In this document: positions 3,094 to 60,877 of the stretch, piece after piece
Position numbering within the stretch: position 1 is the first letter of the stretch
How the letters are laid out: every line of letters starts with the position of its first letter
Assembly: GCA_016432425.1 (NCBI GenBank)
Contig: CP066688.1
Coordinates: 148,368-212,367 of the forward strand
Length of the DNA stretch: 64,000 nucleotides
Reading direction: 5' to 3'
Source: Candidatus Daviesbacteria bacterium
GTDB lineage: Bacteria > Patescibacteriota > Microgenomatia > Daviesbacterales > UBA10151
Notes under the pieces: generated by a model
The model's input: the letters and a program-made list of their open reading frames with translations, nothing else
Databases searched by the model: none
Told to the model about the DNA's origin: nothing
Made by a program: the position numbers and the translations under genes

Positions 3094-5505
3094 TTATGCT
3101 CGAAATGGCCTTTTCGATCTCCGAACTAAATAATAATAACCGGTCGTGACGAAAAGGCCAAATACTGCTAATAAGGATATCATTTTCCCTTTCTTAAAGC
3201 TATCTGGCTCGTACCTAATAATTACCCAATGATCTCCGGCCATTTTTATGGGCACAGCCATAAAAGTGTAATCTGCCTCAACTGGGGCAGTTAATTCTCC
3301 ATCTACATAAGCTTTCCATCCCGGGTAGAAAACCTGGGAAATAAAAAGTAACCCAGGTTGGTTAGTTTCCAGAGCAATTTCTTTTTGGCTAGCTTCATCT
3401 TTAATTATCCGAACTGTTCCCTGCCCTGGTTGAGGATGGAAATCTAAGTCCGTGTTAATAATTAGTTTTTTAGATAAATCGGACTCAAGCAAAAAACTTA
3501 AAATCTTTTGCTCATCCCTTTCTACTTGCCAATCATAAAACATCATTGCCCGGGGCAGTACTTTGGTATTTTCTAGCACCGCTACTGTTTTATCGGTAAA
3601 AACCGGTTTTAAAAATGGGGTCTTAAATCTGTCCGGTAAACTTCCTTGTGGGTCAGGTTTACCCTGGGAGTCTTTTTTCAAGGCTAAGATGTATTTAGCA
3701 TTAACTAGTGATAATAAGGGGGAATTGGGGTTGGAAACTGAGCCGTATCTGCCCATTGGGGTAGCTGCTGTATCCCCTGAATTTAACACCCCTAAAAATT
3801 TAGCATATTTAATTGGATAAACAGCATCATAACCTTCCACTGTTTCAATCCGATAATTCATTAAAAAATTAATCGGGATAACATCTTCTGCCATCACCCG
3901 GTAATGCTTTTGTTGGCGTAAAAATTCAATCACCGAGGTGGTGGGGAAAACTATCTCCGGAGAGGAAAAGGGGGTAAATTTCCAGCCAAAGCGGAATAGT
4001 TCCCCTATTGCCAAAACAATCAATATCAATACTAAAATTAATTTACTCCGTCCTTTGTTACCAAATTTATAATGACACCATAGGATTATCCCAGTTACTG
4101 TGAGTAAAATTGTTGGCAAAATTAAATTGCGCAAGGCCACTTTCAAATTAGCTAAAAATTTTAATGATTCTTCATTGATCAAAAAATGGTATTGAAAAAA
4201 TAAAAAAACTGACCCAGTCACCAAAAGGTAAGCCAGTAAAATAATGCCAGGCAAATAAAGGGCTCGTCTGATTTTCTCGAGTGTTAATTTATCTTTAAGT
4301 AAGCCGTCAATCCCAAAAGCGCCCAAAATGGCAACACCCAAATTAAATAAAATGAGCGCCCGATGAGCAGAAGCTGCCTGCAAACCCAATAAACCTGCCT
4401 CCTTAAAGGCTACTGAAATAGGGTTGGGCAGAGCAATAAACAAAGAAGCTAAACTTAAAACAAAAGCAAATTGGGCATACTTGTTTTTAAAATGAAACAG
4501 ATAACCCAACGATGCCAAAATCCCTACCACCACTCCTACAAAACCAGTGGTTAAAGTATAATCTGCCGGCCCCCAGTAATTATAAGTTGCATGATTGCCA
4601 AAATAGTCAGGGGCAAAAAAAGTTATAAGCAACTGCCATGGCAAAAAGGCCCAGCGGTTTAACACTATTTCTATACTTCTTTGTGAATGAGCTAATAATT
4701 CACCACCCGGCAAAAGTTGTACTCCTGCCAATCCCAAACCAATTAAAATTAAAAAACCGAAACTGAAAATTTTTTTAAAATTAAATAATAATTTAAAATC
4801 TAGTATGATAATTAACAGTAGTATAGACAAAAATTCATAAAGGATAATTTGCGGATAACCGGAAAAAATCTGCAGGCAAAGCGTTATTGGCAGCAAAAAT
4901 CCCGCCCAAACTTTTTCCTTAAAAAGAAATTTGATACTTAAAAATAAAATTGCCGGAAAAAAGGCAGCCACCAAGGAATGTCCATTCCACTGTAACCAAA
5001 CAGTGATAAACCCGGCAAAAGAGAAAAAAATTCCTCCGGCCATGGCAGCCAGTTTACTACGACCTATTTCTCTGAGTAGAAAATATAAAAATACTGCTGC
5101 CAACAGAGGCTGAAAAATTATTTGCCAGTTCCAAGCTGATAATTTTGGTAAGATAAAGTATAAAAAATTAGTGGGAGAAAAGGGAGCTGATTGAAAATTA
5201 GCCAGCAACGGTGTTCCTGCTAAAATTAAATTATTCCACAAAGGGATGTCGCCATTTTTTAATTGATCGATAGCAAACATCTGCATGGGGAAAATAAAAG
5301 ATACAACATCGGTGGTAATGGGATTTTTAACTGGAACTCCTGCTTCAAAACCCGCCCATTTATAATCTAACCAAGGATAGTAAACCCCCACTACAAAATC
5401 CGCTGGCAAAGGAATTTTACCCTGCAGCCAAACCGGATAAAAAAAGATCGCTACCACAACAACAATCGTCAAAACAGGCCATAGGATATTAAAGGCTCTT
5501 CTCAT
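3094..5505 (-). CDS. YfhO-like polytopic membrane protein (putative GT-C family glycosyltransferase)
   Basis: 803 aa. The N-terminal ~450 aa are rich in TM helices. A large soluble domain follows, then a single terminal TM helix (MISLLAVFGLFVTTGYYYLV). This architecture is typical of YfhO. Confidence 0.5.
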   Translation of the reverse strand: MRRAFNILWPVLTIVVVVAIFFYPVWLQGKIPLPADFVVGVYYPWLDYKWAGFEAGVPVKNPITTDVVSFIFPMQMFAIDQLKNGDIPLWNNLILAGTPLLANFQSAPFSPTNFLYFILPKLSAWNWQIIFQPLLAAVFLYFLLREIGRSKLAAMAGGIFFSFAGFITVWLQWNGHSLVAAFFPAILFLSIKFLFKEKVWAGFLLPITLCLQIFSGYPQIILYEFLSILLLIIILDFKLLFNFKKIFSFGFLILIGLGLAGVQLLPGGELLAHSQRSIEIVLNRWAFLPWQLLITFFAPDYFGNHATYNYWGPADYTLTTGFVGVVVGILASLGYLFHFKNKYAQFAFVLSLASLFIALPNPISVAFKEAGLLGLQAASAHRALILFNLGVAILGAFGIDGLLKDKLTLEKIRRALYLPGIILLAYLLVTGSVFLFFQYHFLINEESLKFLANLKVALRNLILPTILLTVTGIILWCHYKFGNKGRSKLILVLILIVLAIGELFRFGWKFTPFSSPEIVFPTTSVIEFLRQQKHYRVMAEDVIPINFLMNYRIETVEGYDAVYPIKYAKFLGVLNSGDTAATPMGRYGSVSNPNSPLLSLVNAKYILALKKDSQGKPDPQGSLPDRFKTPFLKPVFTDKTVAVLENTKVLPRAMMFYDWQVERDEQKILSFLLESDLSKKLIINTDLDFHPQPGQGTVRIIKDEASQKEIALETNQPGLLFISQVFYPGWKAYVDGELTAPVEADYTFMAVPIKMAGDHWVIIRYEPDSFKKGKMISLLAVFGLFVTTGYYYLVRRSKRPFRA

Positions 5506-6401
5506 TTCACTCTATTTGCCACTTTTTGTACAAATCTTTTAAGGGGATTTTTAGATAAATTGCCATATTTAAACCAATAATCTAAATCCTCACCGGATTT
5601 TTTCTTTAGTTGTCTAAGCTCAGTTAAGTCAATTTCTTTTGAAAAAAATTTCTCTTTTTCCCAAACTTTTAGATACATAATCAGAAAAGAAAAAGCTTGG
5701 AGCAAACTTAAAGATAGACCATGAAGGCCATCTTCAAAACCGCGGTTAGCAAAAAACCGGCTTAAAAATTCTGACAGCGGCTTAGTTAAAAGATCTGACC
5801 AACTAAATTTATAGCCATTTTCTATTAGCTCGTTTGCCTGAATTGTAGTATAACGATTTAATCGCTCCACGAATTCGTTAATTGTGCGATAGTGATGGTG
5901 AGTAATTGCCAACTCTTCCTTTAGCTCTAATTTCATTCCCTCCCCTGCCACATCTGGTGGACGATGAATTTTATTACTCCATTTAACCGCGCCTTTTCTA
6001 AAAAATCTAATGTTATAATCCGGCCACCACATAGAAGCTTTCATCCATTTGTTAAAGATGATATTTTTCCGAGGTATTTCTACATAGTTGATTTGCTCCA
6101 AATTTTTGCTAATATCGCGCAGTCTTTTTGCCAGTTCTGAAGAAATTTCTTCGTCGGTATCTAAAATTAAAATCCAATCACCACTGGCTTTAGAAATTGC
6201 CAGATTGCGGGCCGGCTCGACAAATCCAACACTTTTGTGTTTATATATTTTATTGGTATATTTTTTGGCGATTTTAATGGTGTCATCGGTTGACCCATCA
6301 TCCACCACTACAATTTCATCTGCCCATTGGACTGAAGTTAGGGCTGTTTCCAAATATAGGGCAGCATTTAAAGCATTAATCACCACAGAAATATTGGCCA
6401 T
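5502..6401 (-). CDS. Glycosyltransferase family 2
   Basis: ISVVINALN...WADEIVVVDDGSTDDTIKIAK...ILDTDEE. It shares a 64-nt identical tract with the GT2 gene at 765..1577. Confidence 0.8.
   Translation of the reverse strand: MANISVVINALNAALYLETALTSVQWADEIVVVDDGSTDDTIKIAKKYTNKIYKHKSVGFVEPARNLAISKASGDWILILDTDEEISSELAKRLRDISKNLEQINYVEIPRKNIIFNKWMKASMWWPDYNIRFFRKGAVKWSNKIHRPPDVAGEGMKLELKEELAITHHHYRTINEFVERLNRYTTIQANELIENGYKFSWSDLLTKPLSEFLSRFFANRGFEDGLHGLSLSLLQAFSFLIMYLKVWEKEKFFSKEIDLTELRQLKKKSGEDLDYWFKYGNLSKNPLKRFVQKVANRVK
6265..6328. repeat. 64-nt tract identical to 1447..1510
   Basis: See the partner feature at 1447..1510. Confidence 0.85.
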
Positions 6402-17951: not shown

Positions 17952-20167
17952 GACCTAACCTTCCTCGACTCTGGCGGTTTCCCGCTAGGATTATGTATTA
18001 GTTTAAATACTTTTACACCTCTAAACTGTGACTCTTCTTCTACCTTAGCCCAACCAAAGTGGGAAATTTCTTGTTTGGGATGGCCAATTGGCTCACAGAC
18101 AGGATCTTCACAAACCACAAATAACTGCTCCGTTATTTCAAATGGTATTTGAGCTGGTTTGTATCCATACAAACCTAAATAAAATTGATATGCAGCATCA
18201 TAGTTGTTTTTAGCGATCAGGGCAAAATTAAATGGTTTGTCCGCTGATTTCTCAATTACATACTTGGCTATATCCTGTGTCCTCTGTAGTTGGTTATTGG
18301 GCGCAAGAGTTAAGGGGCTTTTTTGTAGATTAAAAACTGCCAGAACTACAATCAAAACCGCGGCTGATATTTTCATTAATTGTTTTAATGGGCCAGTGTA
18401 AAAAAATGCTAAACTATAAAAACTCCCCAGTAGGATAAATGGTACCGGACTGACAAACCCTAAATAGTGGGCATAAACATTTTGTTTATATAAAGCCAAA
18501 CCTAAAAGTGATCCTGCGAGCCAAACACCTAACATTAAATAGGGCCAAGATAAAATACCATCCTTAATTTTTCTCCCGAAAAACAATGCTAAAGGTATTA
18601 AAACTGCAACTGAGGTAATTAAAGTCAAGGTTTTCTCTTGGACTGTCAAGTAAGTGCCAATTAAAGATTCTTGGTAGAGAGGGACAATCCTAAACAGAGA
18701 GTTGACAGGGTTTAAGTTAACAGTAGCCTCCCTGTTACCAAAAAAATTTTGCAAGGCCTGAAAGTTCATAAAATTATGTTTTAAGTCAAAAAGTAGGAGC
18801 GGGGACATTAAAATTAAAAATACCAAAATAGCCAATATTGTTCCCGACCTCACATTTCCTAATTCCCTTTTTTGAGACTTACTATAAATTATTTGATGTA
18901 GCCATAAAACTGCTGCTATAGGAATTAAAATTAAAGCCAGATAATGCATTTGGACAACAAAAGCCAGCGCTCCCCCGCTTAAAATGAGCCAGCGGAAATT
19001 ACCTGTTTGATGGATTTTATATAAACCAAATATGCAAAGTAAGGCAAAAAATGGCGCCGGATTAGGATTCCAAGATGAGCGGGAATAGATGATATTGACC
19101 GGTGAAATACTATAAAGAAAGGCTGCTACCAAACCGGCCTGTTTGGAAAACCACTGGCTCGTTAGATGGTAAATCAACCAGACTGTTAAAATTCCAATGA
19201 CAGCTACCTGGTAAGCTGCCGCGACGGGATTTAGCCAAAAAATAGCCATGGGAATTGCCATCATATAGTAATAAAGGGGGCCTAAATAAATATTGCCAAT
19301 GGAGGTAGGTGGGCCAATAAATGGTAGGTCACGTTCCACTAATAATTTTTTAATTACCAAAGCATCTCTCCCTTCATCGCCCAAAAAGGTCATATATTCC
19401 GGTAGGCGGTAAAATCGCAAAATCGCCGTTAACCCTAAAAGTAACATCAAAATTAGAAATTCTTTTTTATCCAAAAGTACCCACCACAGTTTTAGTAAAT
19501 CTAAATAACTTTTAGCGACCACTTTTAAATTGGCTCCGGTTTGGGTACCGAATTTTCTCGGGTAATGGTGTACTCCCACCTCTAAAATTTTAAAACCCAT
19601 TCTTCGGGCTTTAACCAAAAACTCTATCTGGGTGACTTTTTCCTCCCCCACTAACGGTTGAACTTTTTCAAAAACTTGTTTTTTAATTAATTTAAATCCA
19701 CAAGAATAATCTCTGACATTTAAACCTAAAAGTAGTTTTGCCCCTACATTCCACACATAAGCTCCCACTATTCTGCTGAAAGAGTCCATTCTTTTAAGCC
19801 TATATCCCAAAACTAAATCTGCCTGATCAGCTTTTTCCAAAAGTTTTTTAATCTCGCCAAAGTCAAATTGGCCATCTGAATCGGCAAAAGCTACCCAGGA
19901 AAATTTAGCTGCCTTGAATCCGGTTTTTAGCGCTGCCCCATAGCCTAAATTGTGGGGGTGGGCCACCAATTTAATTTTTCTGTTTGTTTGCGAAAAATTC
20001 TCAACGATTTCTCTGGTTTTATCTTTTGATCCATCATCCACCACCACAATTTCATAATCTTCTAAGGTCAATCCTGTCAGAACTTTTACTGAGTCCGCAA
20101 TAGTTTTTTGGATATTAGCTTCTTCGTTAAAAGCCGGGAAGAAAACAGATAATTTGTCTACACTCAT
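17948..20167 (-). CDS. Fusion protein: N-terminal GT2 polyprenol-phosphate sugar synthase plus C-terminal polytopic GT-C-like domain
   Basis: The N-terminal ~230 aa carry SVFFPAFNEEANI...VVVDDGSKDKT...FADSDGQ. The C-terminal ~500 aa are multi-TM. Confidence 0.7.
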   Translation of the reverse strand: MSVDKLSVFFPAFNEEANIQKTIADSVKVLTGLTLEDYEIVVVDDGSKDKTREIVENFSQTNRKIKLVAHPHNLGYGAALKTGFKAAKFSWVAFADSDGQFDFGEIKKLLEKADQADLVLGYRLKRMDSFSRIVGAYVWNVGAKLLLGLNVRDYSCGFKLIKKQVFEKVQPLVGEEKVTQIEFLVKARRMGFKILEVGVHHYPRKFGTQTGANLKVVAKSYLDLLKLWWVLLDKKEFLILMLLLGLTAILRFYRLPEYMTFLGDEGRDALVIKKLLVERDLPFIGPPTSIGNIYLGPLYYYMMAIPMAIFWLNPVAAAYQVAVIGILTVWLIYHLTSQWFSKQAGLVAAFLYSISPVNIIYSRSSWNPNPAPFFALLCIFGLYKIHQTGNFRWLILSGGALAFVVQMHYLALILIPIAAVLWLHQIIYSKSQKRELGNVRSGTILAILVFLILMSPLLLFDLKHNFMNFQALQNFFGNREATVNLNPVNSLFRIVPLYQESLIGTYLTVQEKTLTLITSVAVLIPLALFFGRKIKDGILSWPYLMLGVWLAGSLLGLALYKQNVYAHYLGFVSPVPFILLGSFYSLAFFYTGPLKQLMKISAAVLIVVLAVFNLQKSPLTLAPNNQLQRTQDIAKYVIEKSADKPFNFALIAKNNYDAAYQFYLGLYGYKPAQIPFEITEQLFVVCEDPVCEPIGHPKQEISHFGWAKVEEESQFRGVKVFKLIHNPSGKPPESRKVRS

Positions 20168-26024: not shown

Positions 26025-26426
26025 CTAGTATACCAAGTTATCTTCTATTTTTTTACTGTTGACGGGAATACCCAGAGACAATCCTAGAGCATTGGCTACT
26101 GAAACTCCCACTCTCAAACCAGTAAAAGATCCCGGCCCAGTTTCTACCTCAATTCCAGTCAAAATTTTCCAATTTGAATTTGCACAATTTGCACTCCTGG
26201 TCTGTTTTTGAACCTGCACTCCCGGAGTGTAGGTTTGAAGTAACTTTTCTATTAGTGGCAGTAAAACTTGAGATCCATACTCATTTTCCTGGCTTAAACT
26301 AGCCATTACTTCCCCATCTTTTTTAAGAGAAACCTCCACCACTTTTTGGTCTTTGGTATTAATATGGAGTATCATCATAATACGAATTTTACCACGAGCA
26401 GGGATGACATCATACACGCTTGACAA
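26025..26426 (-). CDS. tsaB: tRNA t6A biosynthesis protein TsaB-like (short form); the true start may be the internal Met near 26378
   Basis: ...ILTGIEVETGPGSFTGLRVGVSVANALGLSLGIPV matches the conserved TsaB/YeaZ core (GPGSFTG(L/V)R). It carries a 45-nt in-frame repeat insertion (see finding). Confidence 0.55.
   Translation of the reverse strand: MSSVYDVIPARGKIRIMMILHINTKDQKVVEVSLKKDGEVMASLSQENEYGSQVLLPLIEKLLQTYTPGVQVQKQTRSANCANSNWKILTGIEVETGPGSFTGLRVGVSVANALGLSLGIPVNSKKIEDNLVY
26188..26232. repeat. In-frame palindromic repeat element (45 nt) inside tsaB
   Basis: TTGCACTCCTGGTCTGT is a 17/17 reverse-complement match to 48593..48609. AACCTGCACTCCCGGAGTG is an 18/19 match to 48563..48581. Confidence 0.6.
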
Positions 26427-46822: not shown

Positions 46823-46898
46823 GCCGCGTTCGTCTAGTGGCCTAGGACATCGGATTCTCATTCCGAAAATCAGGGGTTCAAATCCCCTACGCGGTACC
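46823..46898 (+). tRNA. tRNA-Glu (anticodon CUC)
   Basis: A manual cloverleaf fold gives a 7-bp acceptor stem (GCCGCGU/ACGCGGU), a D-arm GUCUAGUGGCCUAGGAC, an anticodon stem UCGGA/UCCGA with loop UUCUCAU, and a T-arm AGGGGUUCAAAUCCCCU. The discriminator is A and CC is encoded. It is closely similar to canonical bacterial tRNA-Glu. Confidence 0.85.
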
Positions 46899-46906
46899 GA
46901 GCGATC

Positions 46907-46949
46907 CTACAAATTTAACCTGCAAACCTGCACTCCTGGAGTGAAATCG
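46907..46949. repeat. 43-nt direct repeat, copy 1 (half-element of the palindromic repeat family)
   Basis: CTACAAATTTAACCTGCAAACCTGCACTCCTGGAGTGAAATCG is identical to 48545..48587. Confidence 0.8.
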
Positions 46950-47135
46950 TTTAAGAACAGAAAGAGACCGACTAATCAATTACTTGAGTGAAAGTCAAAG
47001 ATATAAATAACTAGAAGTTTCTTGAAGATGGGTTCCCTTTCCCAGAGCAGAGAATAAACGCACTTCCAGGATAGTAAAAACGACCTCCTTTAACGGTTAT
47101 TTCTGCAGAGGGGAGGCCACCATACCCCATAGGTA

Positions 47136-47163
47136 TTGACTTTATGAGTCTAATGCATATAAT
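47136..47163 (+). promoter_or_regulatory. Near-consensus sigma70 promoter (TTGACT-N16-TATAAT)
   Basis: TTGACT is at 47136..47141 and TATAAT at 47158..47163, about 22 nt upstream of the ATG at 47185. Confidence 0.5.
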
Positions 47164-47184
47164 TTAACAATCTGCCTAATAAAT

Positions 47185-47949
47185 ATGGCTACTGAAGGTC
47201 AACCAACACCAATTCCAAATTTAATTATTGCCCATGTCAACGAAAATCTTTTATTAACCCATGTTAGGACTGTTTCAGATCCTAAGTCTTTACTAGATCG
47301 AAACACCATACATGGAGATCCCTATTTACATAACGTTAAACTTTTCGCAGCCTTTAAAGAACCAGAATATGATCCTGCTAAGATGACTGCTGCTTTAAAT
47401 GAATTAATCACAGCACTAAGATCTTATGAATTTAAAGGAAGTGCTATGGGAAGTAGAATAGATCGTTTTTGGCATGGGGCTGGCAATTTAGTTCCTGGAG
47501 TATTATTTCTTCACGAGCCAATGGGTATAAGAGTAGAAACAAGTACTTGGAGTTTTAAACCCAACAATGAATATGCCAGAGGAGTTATGGCTCAAGCAGG
47601 AATGGAAGAGGGACAAGAGCATACAAAAGTTGAAGAAAAACCTATGTGGAGACAGGTTTCTACTACTATTCTCCCTTCGATCCCCTTAGCAAACTTAGCT
47701 GCAACTAATGAAGAAATGAGTAATATTCCAAAACAGGAGGACAGACCATTTCCTGTTAAAAATTCCTTATATGCGTATCATGGGGTATTAAGCCTGGGAG
47801 ACCTTGAGAAGCTTAAACAAGATCCAACTTATGTACAGGAGATGGCTGATAAAGCATTAGTGGGTTACAGAGTTCCAGGAATAACTAGAAGACCAGGAAG
47901 AATTGAAAGAATAGCTCAAACTTTTGGTTTTCTGCCTTCTCAAGGTTAA
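47185..47949 (+). CDS. Hypothetical protein (254 aa) in the tRNA-adjacent islet
   Basis: This is an ORF with a strong upstream promoter. No family is recognised. Confidence 0.5.
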   Translation: MATEGQPTPIPNLIIAHVNENLLLTHVRTVSDPKSLLDRNTIHGDPYLHNVKLFAAFKEPEYDPAKMTAALNELITALRSYEFKGSAMGSRIDRFWHGAGNLVPGVLFLHEPMGIRVETSTWSFKPNNEYARGVMAQAGMEEGQEHTKVEEKPMWRQVSTTILPSIPLANLAATNEEMSNIPKQEDRPFPVKNSLYAYHGVLSLGDLEKLKQDPTYVQEMADKALVGYRVPGITRRPGRIERIAQTFGFLPSQG

Positions 47950-48353
47950 CTCTTTTTAGCTTCTTTAATTTTATCAGTTATTTCTTTTTTTGAATATTCC
48001 TTATCTATTCTGAAAAAGATTGTGTAACTTTTCTTCTTTAATGGATTTGGATAAATAAAAATACAGACTTCAGGGATATAACCTCCATTTTTAATCTTTT
48101 TAGATTTATGCCATTTGTAGAGTCTTATCAGTAATTTCTCAATTTGGCTAGCTAGAAGGCTAGAAAATACTCCTAACCAGAATTCCTTCATGGTTAGCCA
48201 AGCCACTACAATTTCCTTTATCTCAGCTTCGCCGCCCCCACCCATTTGACCAGCTTTATATTTAAAACCTAGCTTTTCTAGTTCTTGAGCAAGAGAAGAA
48301 GAGGCAGGCTTATTATAGATATAAGGGTCTTCTCTTACAGAGTAGTATTTCAT
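47946..48353 (-). CDS. Hypothetical protein (135 aa), convergent with and overlapping the previous gene by 4 nt
   Basis: The ORF is K-rich at its C-terminus and has a hydrophobic segment (WLGVFSSLLAS). No family is recognised. Confidence 0.4.
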   Translation of the reverse strand: MKYYSVREDPYIYNKPASSSLAQELEKLGFKYKAGQMGGGGEAEIKEIVVAWLTMKEFWLGVFSSLLASQIEKLLIRLYKWHKSKKIKNGGYIPEVCIFIYPNPLKKKSYTIFFRIDKEYSKKEITDKIKEAKKS

Positions 48354-48481
48354 TGATTGTATTATAATGGTTTTAATCTCTAATGGTAGTTATACGCCAG
48401 ATTTGGCTTGAAGCTGGAATTGAGGAGATTTGCCCAAGCTTGCAATGAAGCTAGAAGCTGGTTCCAATTCTCAATCATTTG

Positions 48482-48494
48482 GGGTACCGAGCGA
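48482..48494. repeat. Duplicated 13-nt copy of the tRNA-Glu 3' end (GGTACCGAGCGAT), a candidate att-site remnant
   Basis: It is an exact match to 46893..46905, which spans the tRNA 3' end and 9 nt beyond. The upstream ~30 nt (GGTTCCAATTCTCAATCATTTGGG) loosely resembles a degraded T-arm. Confidence 0.55.
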
Positions 48495-48544
48495 TTACAT
48501 TATCACATAATGAGTCTTTTAAGTATTAAATATTTATTTTCCAA

Positions 48545-48608
48545 CCTACAAATTTAACCTGCAAACCTGCACTCCTGGAGTGAAATCGAATTGACAGACC
48601 AGGAGTGC
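48545..48608. repeat. Palindromic repeat element, full copy (43-nt direct repeat plus an inverted arm forming an 11-bp stem)
   Basis: 48545..48587 equals 46907..46949. TGCACTCCTGG (48567..48577) pairs with CCAGGAGTGCA (48598..48608) around a 20-nt loop. Confidence 0.7.
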
Positions 48609-48694
48609 AAGTTCAGACTGAAATGCACAAATCTAGTTTAGTAATTAGGTTTGGTAATTAGGGATAATATGATATCCGCTCTCTTGTTTATTCA

Positions 48695-53826: not shown

Positions 53827-54570
53827 CAATTTATATTTCCACATCGGGAGTGGAATTATATTGACACATCGGTAAAATTGAGATACACTCAGCTGTAAAT
53901 GCCAGCAAGAACTACTCCTCTGGTAAATGAACAAATTTATCATATATATAATCGGGGTACAGAGAAAAGAAGAATCTTTGATAATAAAAGGTGTTATTCA
54001 AGATTCATACAGACTATTAGATATTATCAGCTAGAAGGCCCTAAACCTAAGTTTTCTAACTTTATTAAACAGAAGTTATTTAATCCTGATCCCGAGAAGA
54101 AGATAGTTGAAATAATCTGTTATTGTTTAATGCCAAATCACTTTCACTTATTGGTTAAACAATTAAAAGATGGGGGAATTAGTGAATTTATGAGAAAACT
54201 AAGTGATAGCTATACTAAATACTACAATATTAAATTTGAAAGAGTAGGAGCTTTATTACAAGGTCCATTTAAAGCAGTTTTAATAGAAACTGATGAACAG
54301 CTCACACATGTGTCCCGCTACATTCATTTAAATCCACTAGTGTCTTTTTTGGTAAAGGATTTAGCTCAATACGAATGGTCATCTTATGAAGAATACATTA
54401 ATAATAAATCAATTGGTATTTGTGTTAAAGAAAATGTGTTAGGTTTTTTCAAATCACCAGAGGATTATAAACAATTTGTCCTAGACCAAGCAGGTTATGG
54501 TCAACAACTAGAATTAATCAAACACCAATTAGTAGATGAATAATTTTGAGCCTACACATCGGGAGTGGAA
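53827..54570 (+). mobile_element. IS200/IS605-like or RAYT-type HUH Y1 transposase unit with 16-nt flanking direct repeats
   Basis: The transposase ORF is bracketed by CACATCGGGAGTGGAA at 53830..53845 and 54555..54570. Each repeat sits within a short inverted repeat (TTCCAC...GTGGAA). Confidence 0.7.
53899..54543 (+). CDS. REP-associated tyrosine transposase / IS200-family HUH transposase (COG1943-like)
   Basis: YHIYNRGTEKRRIF...CYCLMPNHFHLLVKQ (HUH motif)...YTKYYN...GALLQGPFKAV...SRYIHLNPL (catalytic Tyr helix). 214 aa. Confidence 0.8.
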   Translation: MPARTTPLVNEQIYHIYNRGTEKRRIFDNKRCYSRFIQTIRYYQLEGPKPKFSNFIKQKLFNPDPEKKIVEIICYCLMPNHFHLLVKQLKDGGISEFMRKLSDSYTKYYNIKFERVGALLQGPFKAVLIETDEQLTHVSRYIHLNPLVSFLVKDLAQYEWSSYEEYINNKSIGICVKENVLGFFKSPEDYKQFVLDQAGYGQQLELIKHQLVDE

Positions 54571-60034: not shown

Positions 60035-60877
60035 TTAAATATTAACAATTTCAGAGAGAGTTTTAAACCGTGTTGGTAAAGTGTCAGAGAAAAACTCTTC
60101 TTGTTTTGTCCCCTGTAAAGTTAACCCTTCTTGCCAAAGGGCCCGGCCAGCCAAAAATCCCCGGGCCCCAGCTTTGGTAGCTACTGCCAGTTGCAATTTA
60201 AATTCTTCAAAACTAACACCACCCGTCAACAGTATCCAGGGGGTCTTTCCCACCAAATGAGAAATTTCCCGGCAGGCATCCTCATCTCCTGGATATTCCA
60301 ATTTCCAAACATCTGGTATTACTCCTACCTCTATAAAAGACCTGACTGATTCAATCACCATCCCAGCTTTTGAATCTACACTCCCGATGTGGAATTGTAC
60401 CTGCACATCGGGAGTGTAAGTTACAATTTCTAAAAAGAAAGGCAAATTATTTTGCTGACAATCTTTTAAAACCTGTTTAGCTGTTTCTAGCTGCACTTTT
60501 GCACTCCCTAATTGAGGATTAAAATAGACCAGTAATTTCGCTCCTGAGGCTCCTAAGTTTTTAACCTGCTCTACAGAATATTCTAATTCCGTAATTCTTT
60601 CTCTCTCCTGATCAAGAAAACCGCTTTTTTCTACAGGAAGCAGAAATGGTTTTAGTTGACAAGCTTCTTTGCAAGCTTCTAGACCAAAACGCTCGTCAAT
60701 CAAAAGCCCACTCATTTCATTGACCAAAGAATTAATGATTTTATTTTTTAGATCAATAATTTGCTCTTCTGTAACCTCCTGGGGGTTTCCCGGATTAACT
60801 ATTTTTTTAAAACTATCCCGATGATCCAAAGCCAACATTAAAAACTTACCGTTTTTTTGGAATTTAATGGTATTCAT
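60035..60877 (-). CDS. Class I aldolase, tagatose-1,6-bisphosphate aldolase (LacD)/DhnA-like, carrying an in-frame palindromic insert
   Basis: LMLALDHRDSF resembles the LacD-family N-terminal motif. The (beta/alpha)8 pattern runs through ...LLTGGVSFEEF. Confidence in the exact family is moderate. Confidence 0.55.
   Translation of the reverse strand: MNTIKFQKNGKFLMLALDHRDSFKKIVNPGNPQEVTEEQIIDLKNKIINSLVNEMSGLLIDERFGLEACKEACQLKPFLLPVEKSGFLDQERERITELEYSVEQVKNLGASGAKLLVYFNPQLGSAKVQLETAKQVLKDCQQNNLPFFLEIVTYTPDVQVQFHIGSVDSKAGMVIESVRSFIEVGVIPDVWKLEYPGDEDACREISHLVGKTPWILLTGGVSFEEFKLQLAVATKAGARGFLAGRALWQEGLTLQGTKQEEFFSDTLPTRFKTLSEIVNI
60377..60418. repeat. Perfect 15-bp-stem palindromic element (42 nt) lying in-frame inside the aldolase gene
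   Basis: TACACTCCCGATGTG-gaattgtacctg-CACATCGGGAGTGTA. The arms match the transposase-flanking repeat CACATCGGGAGTG. Confidence 0.75.

Follow-up and report, generated by a model that had tools for sequence, protein, structure and literature searches.

A translated palindrome in an aldolase gene of Candidatus Daviesbacteria, probably a REPIN-like doublet with a RAYT-like cognate enzyme

A 64-kb stretch of DNA from a Candidatus Daviesbacteria bacterium (the whole stretch is called the window here) carries a perfect palindrome at 60377-60418, inside a minus-strand open reading frame (ORF, 60035-60877) for a class I aldolase of the LacD/DUF2090 type (280 aa; Pfam DeoC/LacD at 1.7e-22, plus DUF2090). 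The aldolase ORF matches a Candidatus Daviesbacteria protein at 100% identity, which places the genome in the candidate phyla radiation (CPR), a possibility that a first-pass annotation made from the letters of the window had raised. The palindrome, TACACTCCCGATGTG-GAATTGTACCTG-CACATCGGGAGTGTA, has a perfect 15-bp stem and a 12-nt loop (42 nt in total) and encodes residues Y154-V167 of the aldolase (YTPDVQVQFHIGSV) with no stop codon. About 6 kb away lies a plus-strand gene (53899-54543) for a 214-aa Y1/HUH protein resembling the tyrosine transposases associated with repetitive extragenic palindromes (REPs), or RAYTs; its flanks contain the same 13-mer, CACATCGGGAGTG, as the arms of the palindrome. 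The stem and loop, the 14 in-frame residues and the match between arms and transposase flanks had already been described in the first-pass annotation, and all were recovered.

The repeats bracketing the RAYT-like gene were as follows. On the 5' side (53837-53872, plus strand), a complete unit, TTCCAC-ATCGGGA-GTGGAA (53837-53855), is followed by a linker (TTATATTGA) and a half unit (CACATCGG, 53865-53872); on the 3' side (54552-54570, plus strand) a second unit, CTA-CACATCGGGAGTG-GAA, has the same orientation as the first. These plus-strand copies extend to a 16-mer, CACATCGGGAGTGGAA, and bracket the Y1_Tnp ORF in direct orientation. The 12-mer CACATCGGGAGT was present four times in the window (53840(+), 54555(+), 60380(-) and 60404(+)) against 0.07 copies expected, and none of 100 shuffled sequences reached four. 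Perfect inverted 13-mers separated by 4-30 nt gave three overlapping matches in the window, all from the aldolase palindrome (simulated mean 0.11, first-order Markov). Given the excess of the 12-mer, the pair of 16-mers and the unexpected size of the palindrome, the match of the arms to the transposase flanks is not due to chance. Folded as single-stranded DNA, the aldolase hairpin reached -17 kcal/mol (z = -7.2), a value equalled by none of 200 shuffles.

The REP unit is a small hairpin, TTCCAC-ATCGGGA-GTGGAA, with a 6-bp stem, and its orientation can be read only from its 7-nt loop. The aldolase element is composed of two such units inverted relative to each other, like the doublets known as REPINs (REP doublets forming hairpins). 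By direct reading, the arms are free of stop codons whatever the frame. No target-site duplication was found flanking the doublets, the hairpin being the whole element, and an Rfam scan of the window returned a tRNA as its sole match and no family for the hairpins. The 19-nt unit had no copy in viral contigs. Bases resembling CTAC/GTAG lie beside some copies but not all (60376-60379 and 54552-54555 in the window; also in the related loci L130 and L146), on the side opposite to the one seen in classical REPs.

The RAYT-like gene was assigned to Pfam Y1_Tnp (1.4e-8), and its HUH motif (HFH, in LMPNHFHLLV) and the tyrosine of SRYIHLNP align to ISDra2 TnpA. Its protein has more than 7,900 relatives, and the few with a source name were almost all from CPR bacteria (Daviesbacteria or Patescibacteria). 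The gene is single-copy within the window (one tblastn match), and the order Lon-CobO-RAYT-RNR was kept in other Daviesbacteria (the related loci L147/L148 and L151/L152), with RAYT orthologs 72-78% identical. From its sequence and position, the gene looks vertically inherited, syntenic and single-copy rather than an active insertion sequence (IS), and since its orthologs share the Lon-CobO-RAYT-RNR position it appears to behave as a domesticated RAYT (PMC5581495). Of the candidate mobilising HUH transposase of the first-pass annotation, the HUH/Y1 identity was confirmed, although the gene does not look like an active IS.

The sequence of the flanking repeats differs between RAYT lineages. TTCCACATCGGGAGTGGAAG, with the loop ATCGGGA as in the window, was found on both flanks in L147/L148 (RAYT 78% identical to that of the window), and CCACCCTTGGGGTGG on both flanks in L149/L150 (69% identical). 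L151/L152 (72% identical) had TTCCAC-CTCGGGG-GTGGAG 5' of the gene and the inverse of this repeat 3' of it, and in L031 (47% identical) a doublet directly precedes the start codon. A linker, ..TATTGACAC.., was common to the window, L147/L148, L149/L150 and the 5' flank of L151/L152. In the 3' flank of the RAYT ortholog of L147 (10670-10740), a repeat of the ATCGGGA type adjoins one of the CCACCCTTGGGGTGG type, the latter being the one that flanks another RAYT lineage (L149). A second Y1_Tnp family was also encountered: the gene at L121 512-1153, directly upstream of an aldolase gene, had been expected to share the repeat, and was set aside as a different family (37% identical to the RAYT of the window). 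This gene and that at L153 11288-11947 have other flanking palindromes (gggtccgaccc and ggaccgtcc types).

The aldolase that hosts the palindrome keeps its catalytic-type residues, E150 (in FLEI) and K192 (in VWKLEYP). The AlphaFold2 model (mean predicted local distance difference test score, pLDDT, 93.5; predicted template modelling score 0.91) had LacD and the sulfohexulose-phosphate aldolase 8tnf as its nearest solved folds. The element-encoded segment sits between strand 147-153, which bears E150, and helix 170-183; residues 154-167 fall in the loop 154-169, with pLDDT below 50 at 161-166, and form a surface loop, the kind of site that the first-pass annotation had looked for. Its other structural proposal, a clean 14-codon insertion relative to all homologs, was rejected: LacD (5hjl) and 8tnf align through the segment without gaps and with equal native length, and in the nearest element-free orthologs the segment is replaced, with a net difference of 5-9 residues. 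The loop following FLEIVTY ranged from 8 to 37 residues in 120 CPR homologs (a single fragmentary sequence, with 2, excepted), 45 of the 120 had short loops such as TYGGENLVI, and TYxPD opened the loop in many relatives. Judged from these alignments, the element counts as an insertion only when compared with the short-loop orthologs of CPR bacteria, and it occupies, and may partly overlie, a naturally variable loop.

In this loop, six proteins, including that of the window, contain TP[DE]Vxxxx and, after it, H[IS][GR][SC]; the DNA of all six was read. In five of these aldolase genes, 59-75% identical, the arms ACTCCCGATGTG and CACATCGGGAGTG were nucleotide-identical except for one base (GAA for GAT in P0007) and the 12-nt loop varied. 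For arm codons with a conserved residue, 7 of 7 were identical in all five orthologs, compared with 18 of 115 elsewhere in the gene. In P0005 the second unit was flipped, giving a direct repeat. The orthologs P0002 and P0003 are 84% identical as proteins and 83.6% as genes, but only 53-55% across the element, where P0003 has a variant, CAATCCCGGTTTG-12 nt-CAATCCGGGATTG, at the same codon and with unchanged architecture. Two other loci had CACCTCCGAGGTG-24 nt-CACCTCGGAGGTG (L153) and a degenerate CACACCGGGAGTG-type doublet (L154) at the aldolase site. On a rough neighbour-joining tree the carriers were scattered, often beside element-free relatives.

The aldolase site behaves as a persistent hot spot at which variants swap at the same codon in close relatives, and the element evolves independently of its host gene. 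Arms conserved across diverged orthologs, together with swaps between close relatives, fit replacement or homogenisation from a genome-wide repeat population and do not fit ordinary drift. The private or recent event that the first-pass annotation implied is contradicted by the six carriers and by arms nucleotide-identical across aldolases of 59-75% identity. The carriers are related Daviesbacteria sharing nucleotide arms, and not homologs from unrelated taxa with the same residues, a distribution that would have pointed to an ancestral segment. In L154, on a related CPR contig, a bAvd gene lies beside an RVT_1 reverse transcriptase gene (4653-6015), about 4 kb upstream of the aldolase gene, in a layout like that of diversity-generating retroelements.

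Further copies, whose lack would have counted against the first-pass annotation, do exist: related bacteria have matching repeats in frame in nine or more other genes, many of them unrelated. A scan of metagenomes for doublets gave copies with the same arms in long ORFs for a TrxR/AhpF-like protein, a GIY-YIG (UvrC-like) fragment, RecJ, a PMT_2 glycosyltransferase and TsaD, and a Wzy_C protein of Blackburnbacteria also carries a same-arm doublet in frame. TsaD holds a second doublet of another variant, and a P-type ATPase carries the variant CACCTCGCAGGTG in frame at orthologous sites in two genomes. The doublet segments of TsaD and of the TrxR/AhpF-like protein are gaps in solved homologs. 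The doublets found elsewhere were mostly within long ORFs, with element lengths of 36-50 nt; one lies in an LCAT/abhydrolase gene (L123 20263) that runs off the locus, which leaves its frame unset. Soluble enzymes showed the reading frame TPDV..HIGS, and the PMT_2 and Wzy_C proteins (L136 12281-12316 and L032 3525-3561) the frame LPMW, followed by TSGV (PMT_2) or HRE (Wzy_C); in this small sample, the distribution suggests selection on which frame survives where.

The module of the RAYT 5' flank (unit, linker and half unit) was also present between genes, as ttcCACATCGGGAGTGGAAtagctttgCACATCGGG, in Candidatus Blackburnbacteria and in another Microgenomates genome, in some cases preceded by an inverted unit. 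A genome collection of 596 billion bases was scanned with the 15-mer CACATCGGGAGTGKA, and the matches listed were mostly from unrelated taxa, as chance predicts; the informative ones among the matches listed were the Microgenomates/Blackburnbacteria loci L011, L032, L064, L080, L105 and possibly L117, and the genome of the window was not among them. Metagenome hits with a 4-nt loop were set aside as unrelated (gut and other non-CPR contigs with terminator-like hairpins sharing the arms by chance), as was L137, which is GC-rich. A variant, CACCTC(C/G)GAGGTG, at L123 10851 and L153 3090 includes the Shine-Dalgarno-like GGAGGTG and its complement CACCTCC, and one single copy of it lies about 8 nt upstream of the start codon of a 2-hydroxyacid dehydrogenase gene.

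A second, related group of repeats (family B, as distinct from family A, to which the aldolase and RAYT copies belong) was found in the window, where three family-A and three family-B loci were counted in 64 kb, two of them in genes. The in-gene family-B copy (26190-26231, minus strand; 42 nt, core CACTCCYGGAGTG) lies in frame in an ORF for a minimal TsaB-like protein (26025-26378), is translated as YTPGVQVQKQTRSA and is identical to the aldolase element at about 31 of 42 positions by our own count. TsaB orthologs of 100 aa lack the insert. The arm-peptide pattern was matched by 61 of 120 TsaB homologs, and most of the others had, by inspection, similar inserts of 11-13 residues. The arm residues covary as reverse-complement codons would (T-S, N-I, K-F, P-G/R/W, V-H, L-Q): with kinship ignored, the outer arm pair was compatible in 48 of the 61 (shuffled mean 25, maximum 38) and the inner V-H / L-Q pair in 53 of the 61 (shuffled mean 31, maximum 44).

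The two intergenic family-B loci contain 44-nt perfect direct repeats. The first repeat (46906-46949, plus strand) begins 8 nt past tRNA-Glu(CTC) (46823-46898); the second (48545-48588) forms, with an inverted partner, CACTCCTGGAGTG-AAATCGAATTGA-CAGACCAGGAGTG, a plus-strand module (48545-48609) that folds at -14 kcal/mol. Between the repeats lies a 1.6-kb segment (46950-48544) with two ORFs lacking Pfam matches, which may be a small inserted cassette, since the syntenic loci L147 and L151 have a different interval from GreA to H+-PPase. Elsewhere in the window, a 73-nt stretch at 1447-1519 is repeated at 6265-6337, 4.8 kb apart (96% identical), with a third copy at 20001 (63%).

The aldolase palindrome is probably a REPIN-like inverted doublet of the hairpin TTCCAC-ATCGGGA-GTGGAA, and the RAYT-like Y1/HUH protein encoded at 53899-54543 is probably its cognate enzyme. 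The repeat shared by the two, the differences between RAYT lineages, the in-frame residence in many genes and the evolution decoupled from the host gene were all observed. By analogy with the TnpA of IS200/IS605 and with E. coli TnpA-REP, the RAYT would bind the hairpin (TTCCACATCGGGAGTGGAA) on single-stranded DNA and cut beside it, which would drive insertion, replacement or homogenisation of doublets, and only in-frame copies in tolerant loops would survive in a gene-dense genome. In the aldolase, predicted to be functional, the doublet occupies the beta-alpha loop after the strand bearing the catalytic-type Glu; it is probably tolerated there because it is 42 nt long, has arms free of stop codons in any frame and encodes a flexible surface loop. 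More generally, stop-free arms and lengths that are multiples of three would allow doublets to survive in the loops of a gene-dense genome.

Several points weigh against this interpretation. The best and only NCBIfam match of the RAYT protein was REP_Tyr_transpos (NF047646 equivalog), at 53.3 bits vs. a cutoff of 80, and by its sequence the protein is classed as a distant relative, not a curated member, of the REP-associated tyrosine transposases; its role in mobilisation is argued from analogy. Copies are few locally (the three family-A loci in 64 kb), and classical REPs and REPINs are extragenic and abundant, whereas the copies described here are largely intragenic. The window is the only case in which identity between a RAYT-flank repeat and an in-gene doublet was established within one genome. 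On its own, a REP hairpin folds weakly (-7 kcal/mol, z = -1.65, for the 5' flank; no better than shuffles for the 3' unit). As the segment equals that of LacD and 8tnf in length and TYxPD occurs in relatives, the left arm may partly overlie ancestral coding sequence. Finally, an empty-site allele of this species was not found, the aldolase tree was a rough neighbour-joining tree only, and the TsaB compatibilities take no account of kinship.

The explanation that survives best after this one is that the hairpins serve the host in regulation or structure, having been selected where they stand and kept palindromic by compensatory mutation, with transposition playing no current role; they might stabilise mRNA, cause a pause in translation, be cut by an RNase, or bind nucleoid proteins or gyrase, the last two having been proposed for E. 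coli REPs and bacterial interspersed mosaic elements. The stability of the hairpin (-17 kcal/mol), the changes in both arms that keep complementarity in TsaB and in the aldolase, and a position kept in orthologs over long divergence are all in its favour. It leaves unexplained, however, why the arms equal the RAYT-flank repeats and why identical 13-mers occur in unrelated genes, no Rfam family matched the hairpins, and between sisters 84% identical the arms and the loop changed together, as in replacement and not in stepwise compensation. We consider it unlikely as a full account, and a host function for the hairpins could coexist with the REP-RAYT interpretation.

Less probable still, and in our opinion improbable, is that the 13-mer serves another system (DNA uptake, restriction-modification, recombination, or the ends of an IS200/IS605 element giving rise to MITEs (miniature transposable elements with inverted repeats) like the palindrome-associated transposable elements (PATEs)), the Y1 gene being an ordinary IS transposase. 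Uptake signals and IS-derived MITEs are also found within genes and as inverted pairs, and the flanking units of the window are in direct orientation, like the left and right ends of IS200/IS605. The density of the 13-mer is, however, far below that of known uptake signals, the repeat varies with the lineage of the Y1 gene, this gene has one copy in the window and keeps its syntenic place from species to species, which is not IS-like, and no match was found in the viral contigs. The last explanation, an ordinary ancestral loop native to LacD-type aldolases whose palindrome and flank match arose by coincidence or protein-level selection, would accommodate the equal-length, ungapped segment of LacD (5hjl) and 8tnf and the TYxPD opening of many relatives, but the evidence from codons and from several genes already speaks against it (7 of 7 arm codons unchanged among five diverged orthologs vs. 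18 of 115 elsewhere; four 12-mers vs. 0.07; the same DNA read in a different frame in PMT_2 and Wzy_C, both membrane proteins; the absence of the segment from short-loop orthologs; the low model confidence at these residues), and it is scarcely credible.

A wider proposal can be put forward tentatively, as a possibility that we would not yet favour: lineage-specific RAYTs of Microgenomates would keep rewriting short translated loops at fixed positions of housekeeping genes by inserting, replacing or homogenising REP doublets. Were this so, part of the proteome (the loops of aldolase, TsaB, TsaD, TrxR-like proteins and the P-type ATPase) would evolve with a domesticated transposase and not with the host gene, and these compact genomes would maintain their intragenic REPINs instead of just tolerating them as junk.

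No report of REP/RAYT systems or in-frame palindromes in CPR bacteria was found in the literature searched. Both phenomena are of a known kind: the palindromes resemble the Rickettsia palindromic elements (RPEs), and here, in a CPR bacterium, they are probably linked to a REP-RAYT system. In-frame palindromes in coding genes are best known from Rickettsia; here they occur in a CPR lineage, with a candidate enzyme nearby, a repeat that tracks the enzyme lineage and a natural series of replacements at one codon position. The movement of REP doublets, the retention of RAYTs and the share of repeat turnover in the proteins of reduced genomes become directly testable. In practical terms, the variable loops of CPR orthologs can derive from repeats, with distorted alignments, trees and structure predictions as a result, and the hairpins may break assemblies.

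Compared with the REP/REPIN-RAYT systems (Nunvar 2010; Bertels & Rainey 2011; Ton-Hoang 2012; PMC3116915, PMC5581495), the system described here has in common a Y1/HUH gene that is single-copy and vertically inherited and has short hairpin repeats of its own on its flanks, the pairing of repeats as inverted doublets that fold into one long hairpin (here with a 15-bp stem and -17 kcal/mol, and with further doublets in metagenomes and related loci) and a repeat sequence specific to the RAYT lineage. It differs in that the Daviesbacteria copies are mostly intragenic and translated instead of extragenic, the abundance of REPs (tens to hundreds per genome) is unmatched locally, the units, of 19 nt with a core of 13 nt, are very short, a 5' GTAG or CGTC tag is not clearly recognisable, and the host is a CPR bacterium; CPR are not mentioned in the RAYT groups of PMC5581495 or in the classes of PMC6006769.

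IS200/IS605 elements and their PATE/MITE derivatives share with it the Y1/HUH enzyme, the subterminal same-strand hairpins at both ends (in the window) and the lack of evident terminal inverted repeats and target duplications. Unlike an IS200/IS605 element, the Daviesbacteria Y1 gene is single-copy in the window, occupies a fixed syntenic locus and has no multiple near-identical whole-element copies there; unlike PATE/MITE derivatives, the dispersed elements are hairpin doublets and not end-to-end derivatives of the gene flanks. Of the REP/MITE-like character given to the element in the first-pass annotation, a REP-type palindrome in a coding gene was confirmed; unlike classical MITEs, which have terminal inverted repeats with flanking target-site duplications, the doublets have no duplications beside them and consist of the hairpin alone.

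The precedent of the RPEs, drawn in the first-pass annotation, proved apt for an in-frame palindrome with a tolerated peptide and inexact in size and taxonomic range. Both kinds of element lie in frame in genes of a reduced genome that are unrelated and serve housekeeping or metabolism, and both add a peptide compatible with the fold. RPEs, as summarised in PMC10969869 after Ogata et al. (2000), are about 150 bp long, form ten families and were described from Rickettsia species, whereas the Daviesbacteria elements measure 36-50 nt and belong to CPR Microgenomates. PMC10969869 names no partner transposase for RPEs, and no mention of RPEs together with RAYT was found in the literature searched; here, the same repeat flanks a RAYT gene, and different variants take each other's place at a single codon position. 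In its working the element is like a REPIN-RAYT system and in its appearance like an RPE, and it is a curated member of neither group.

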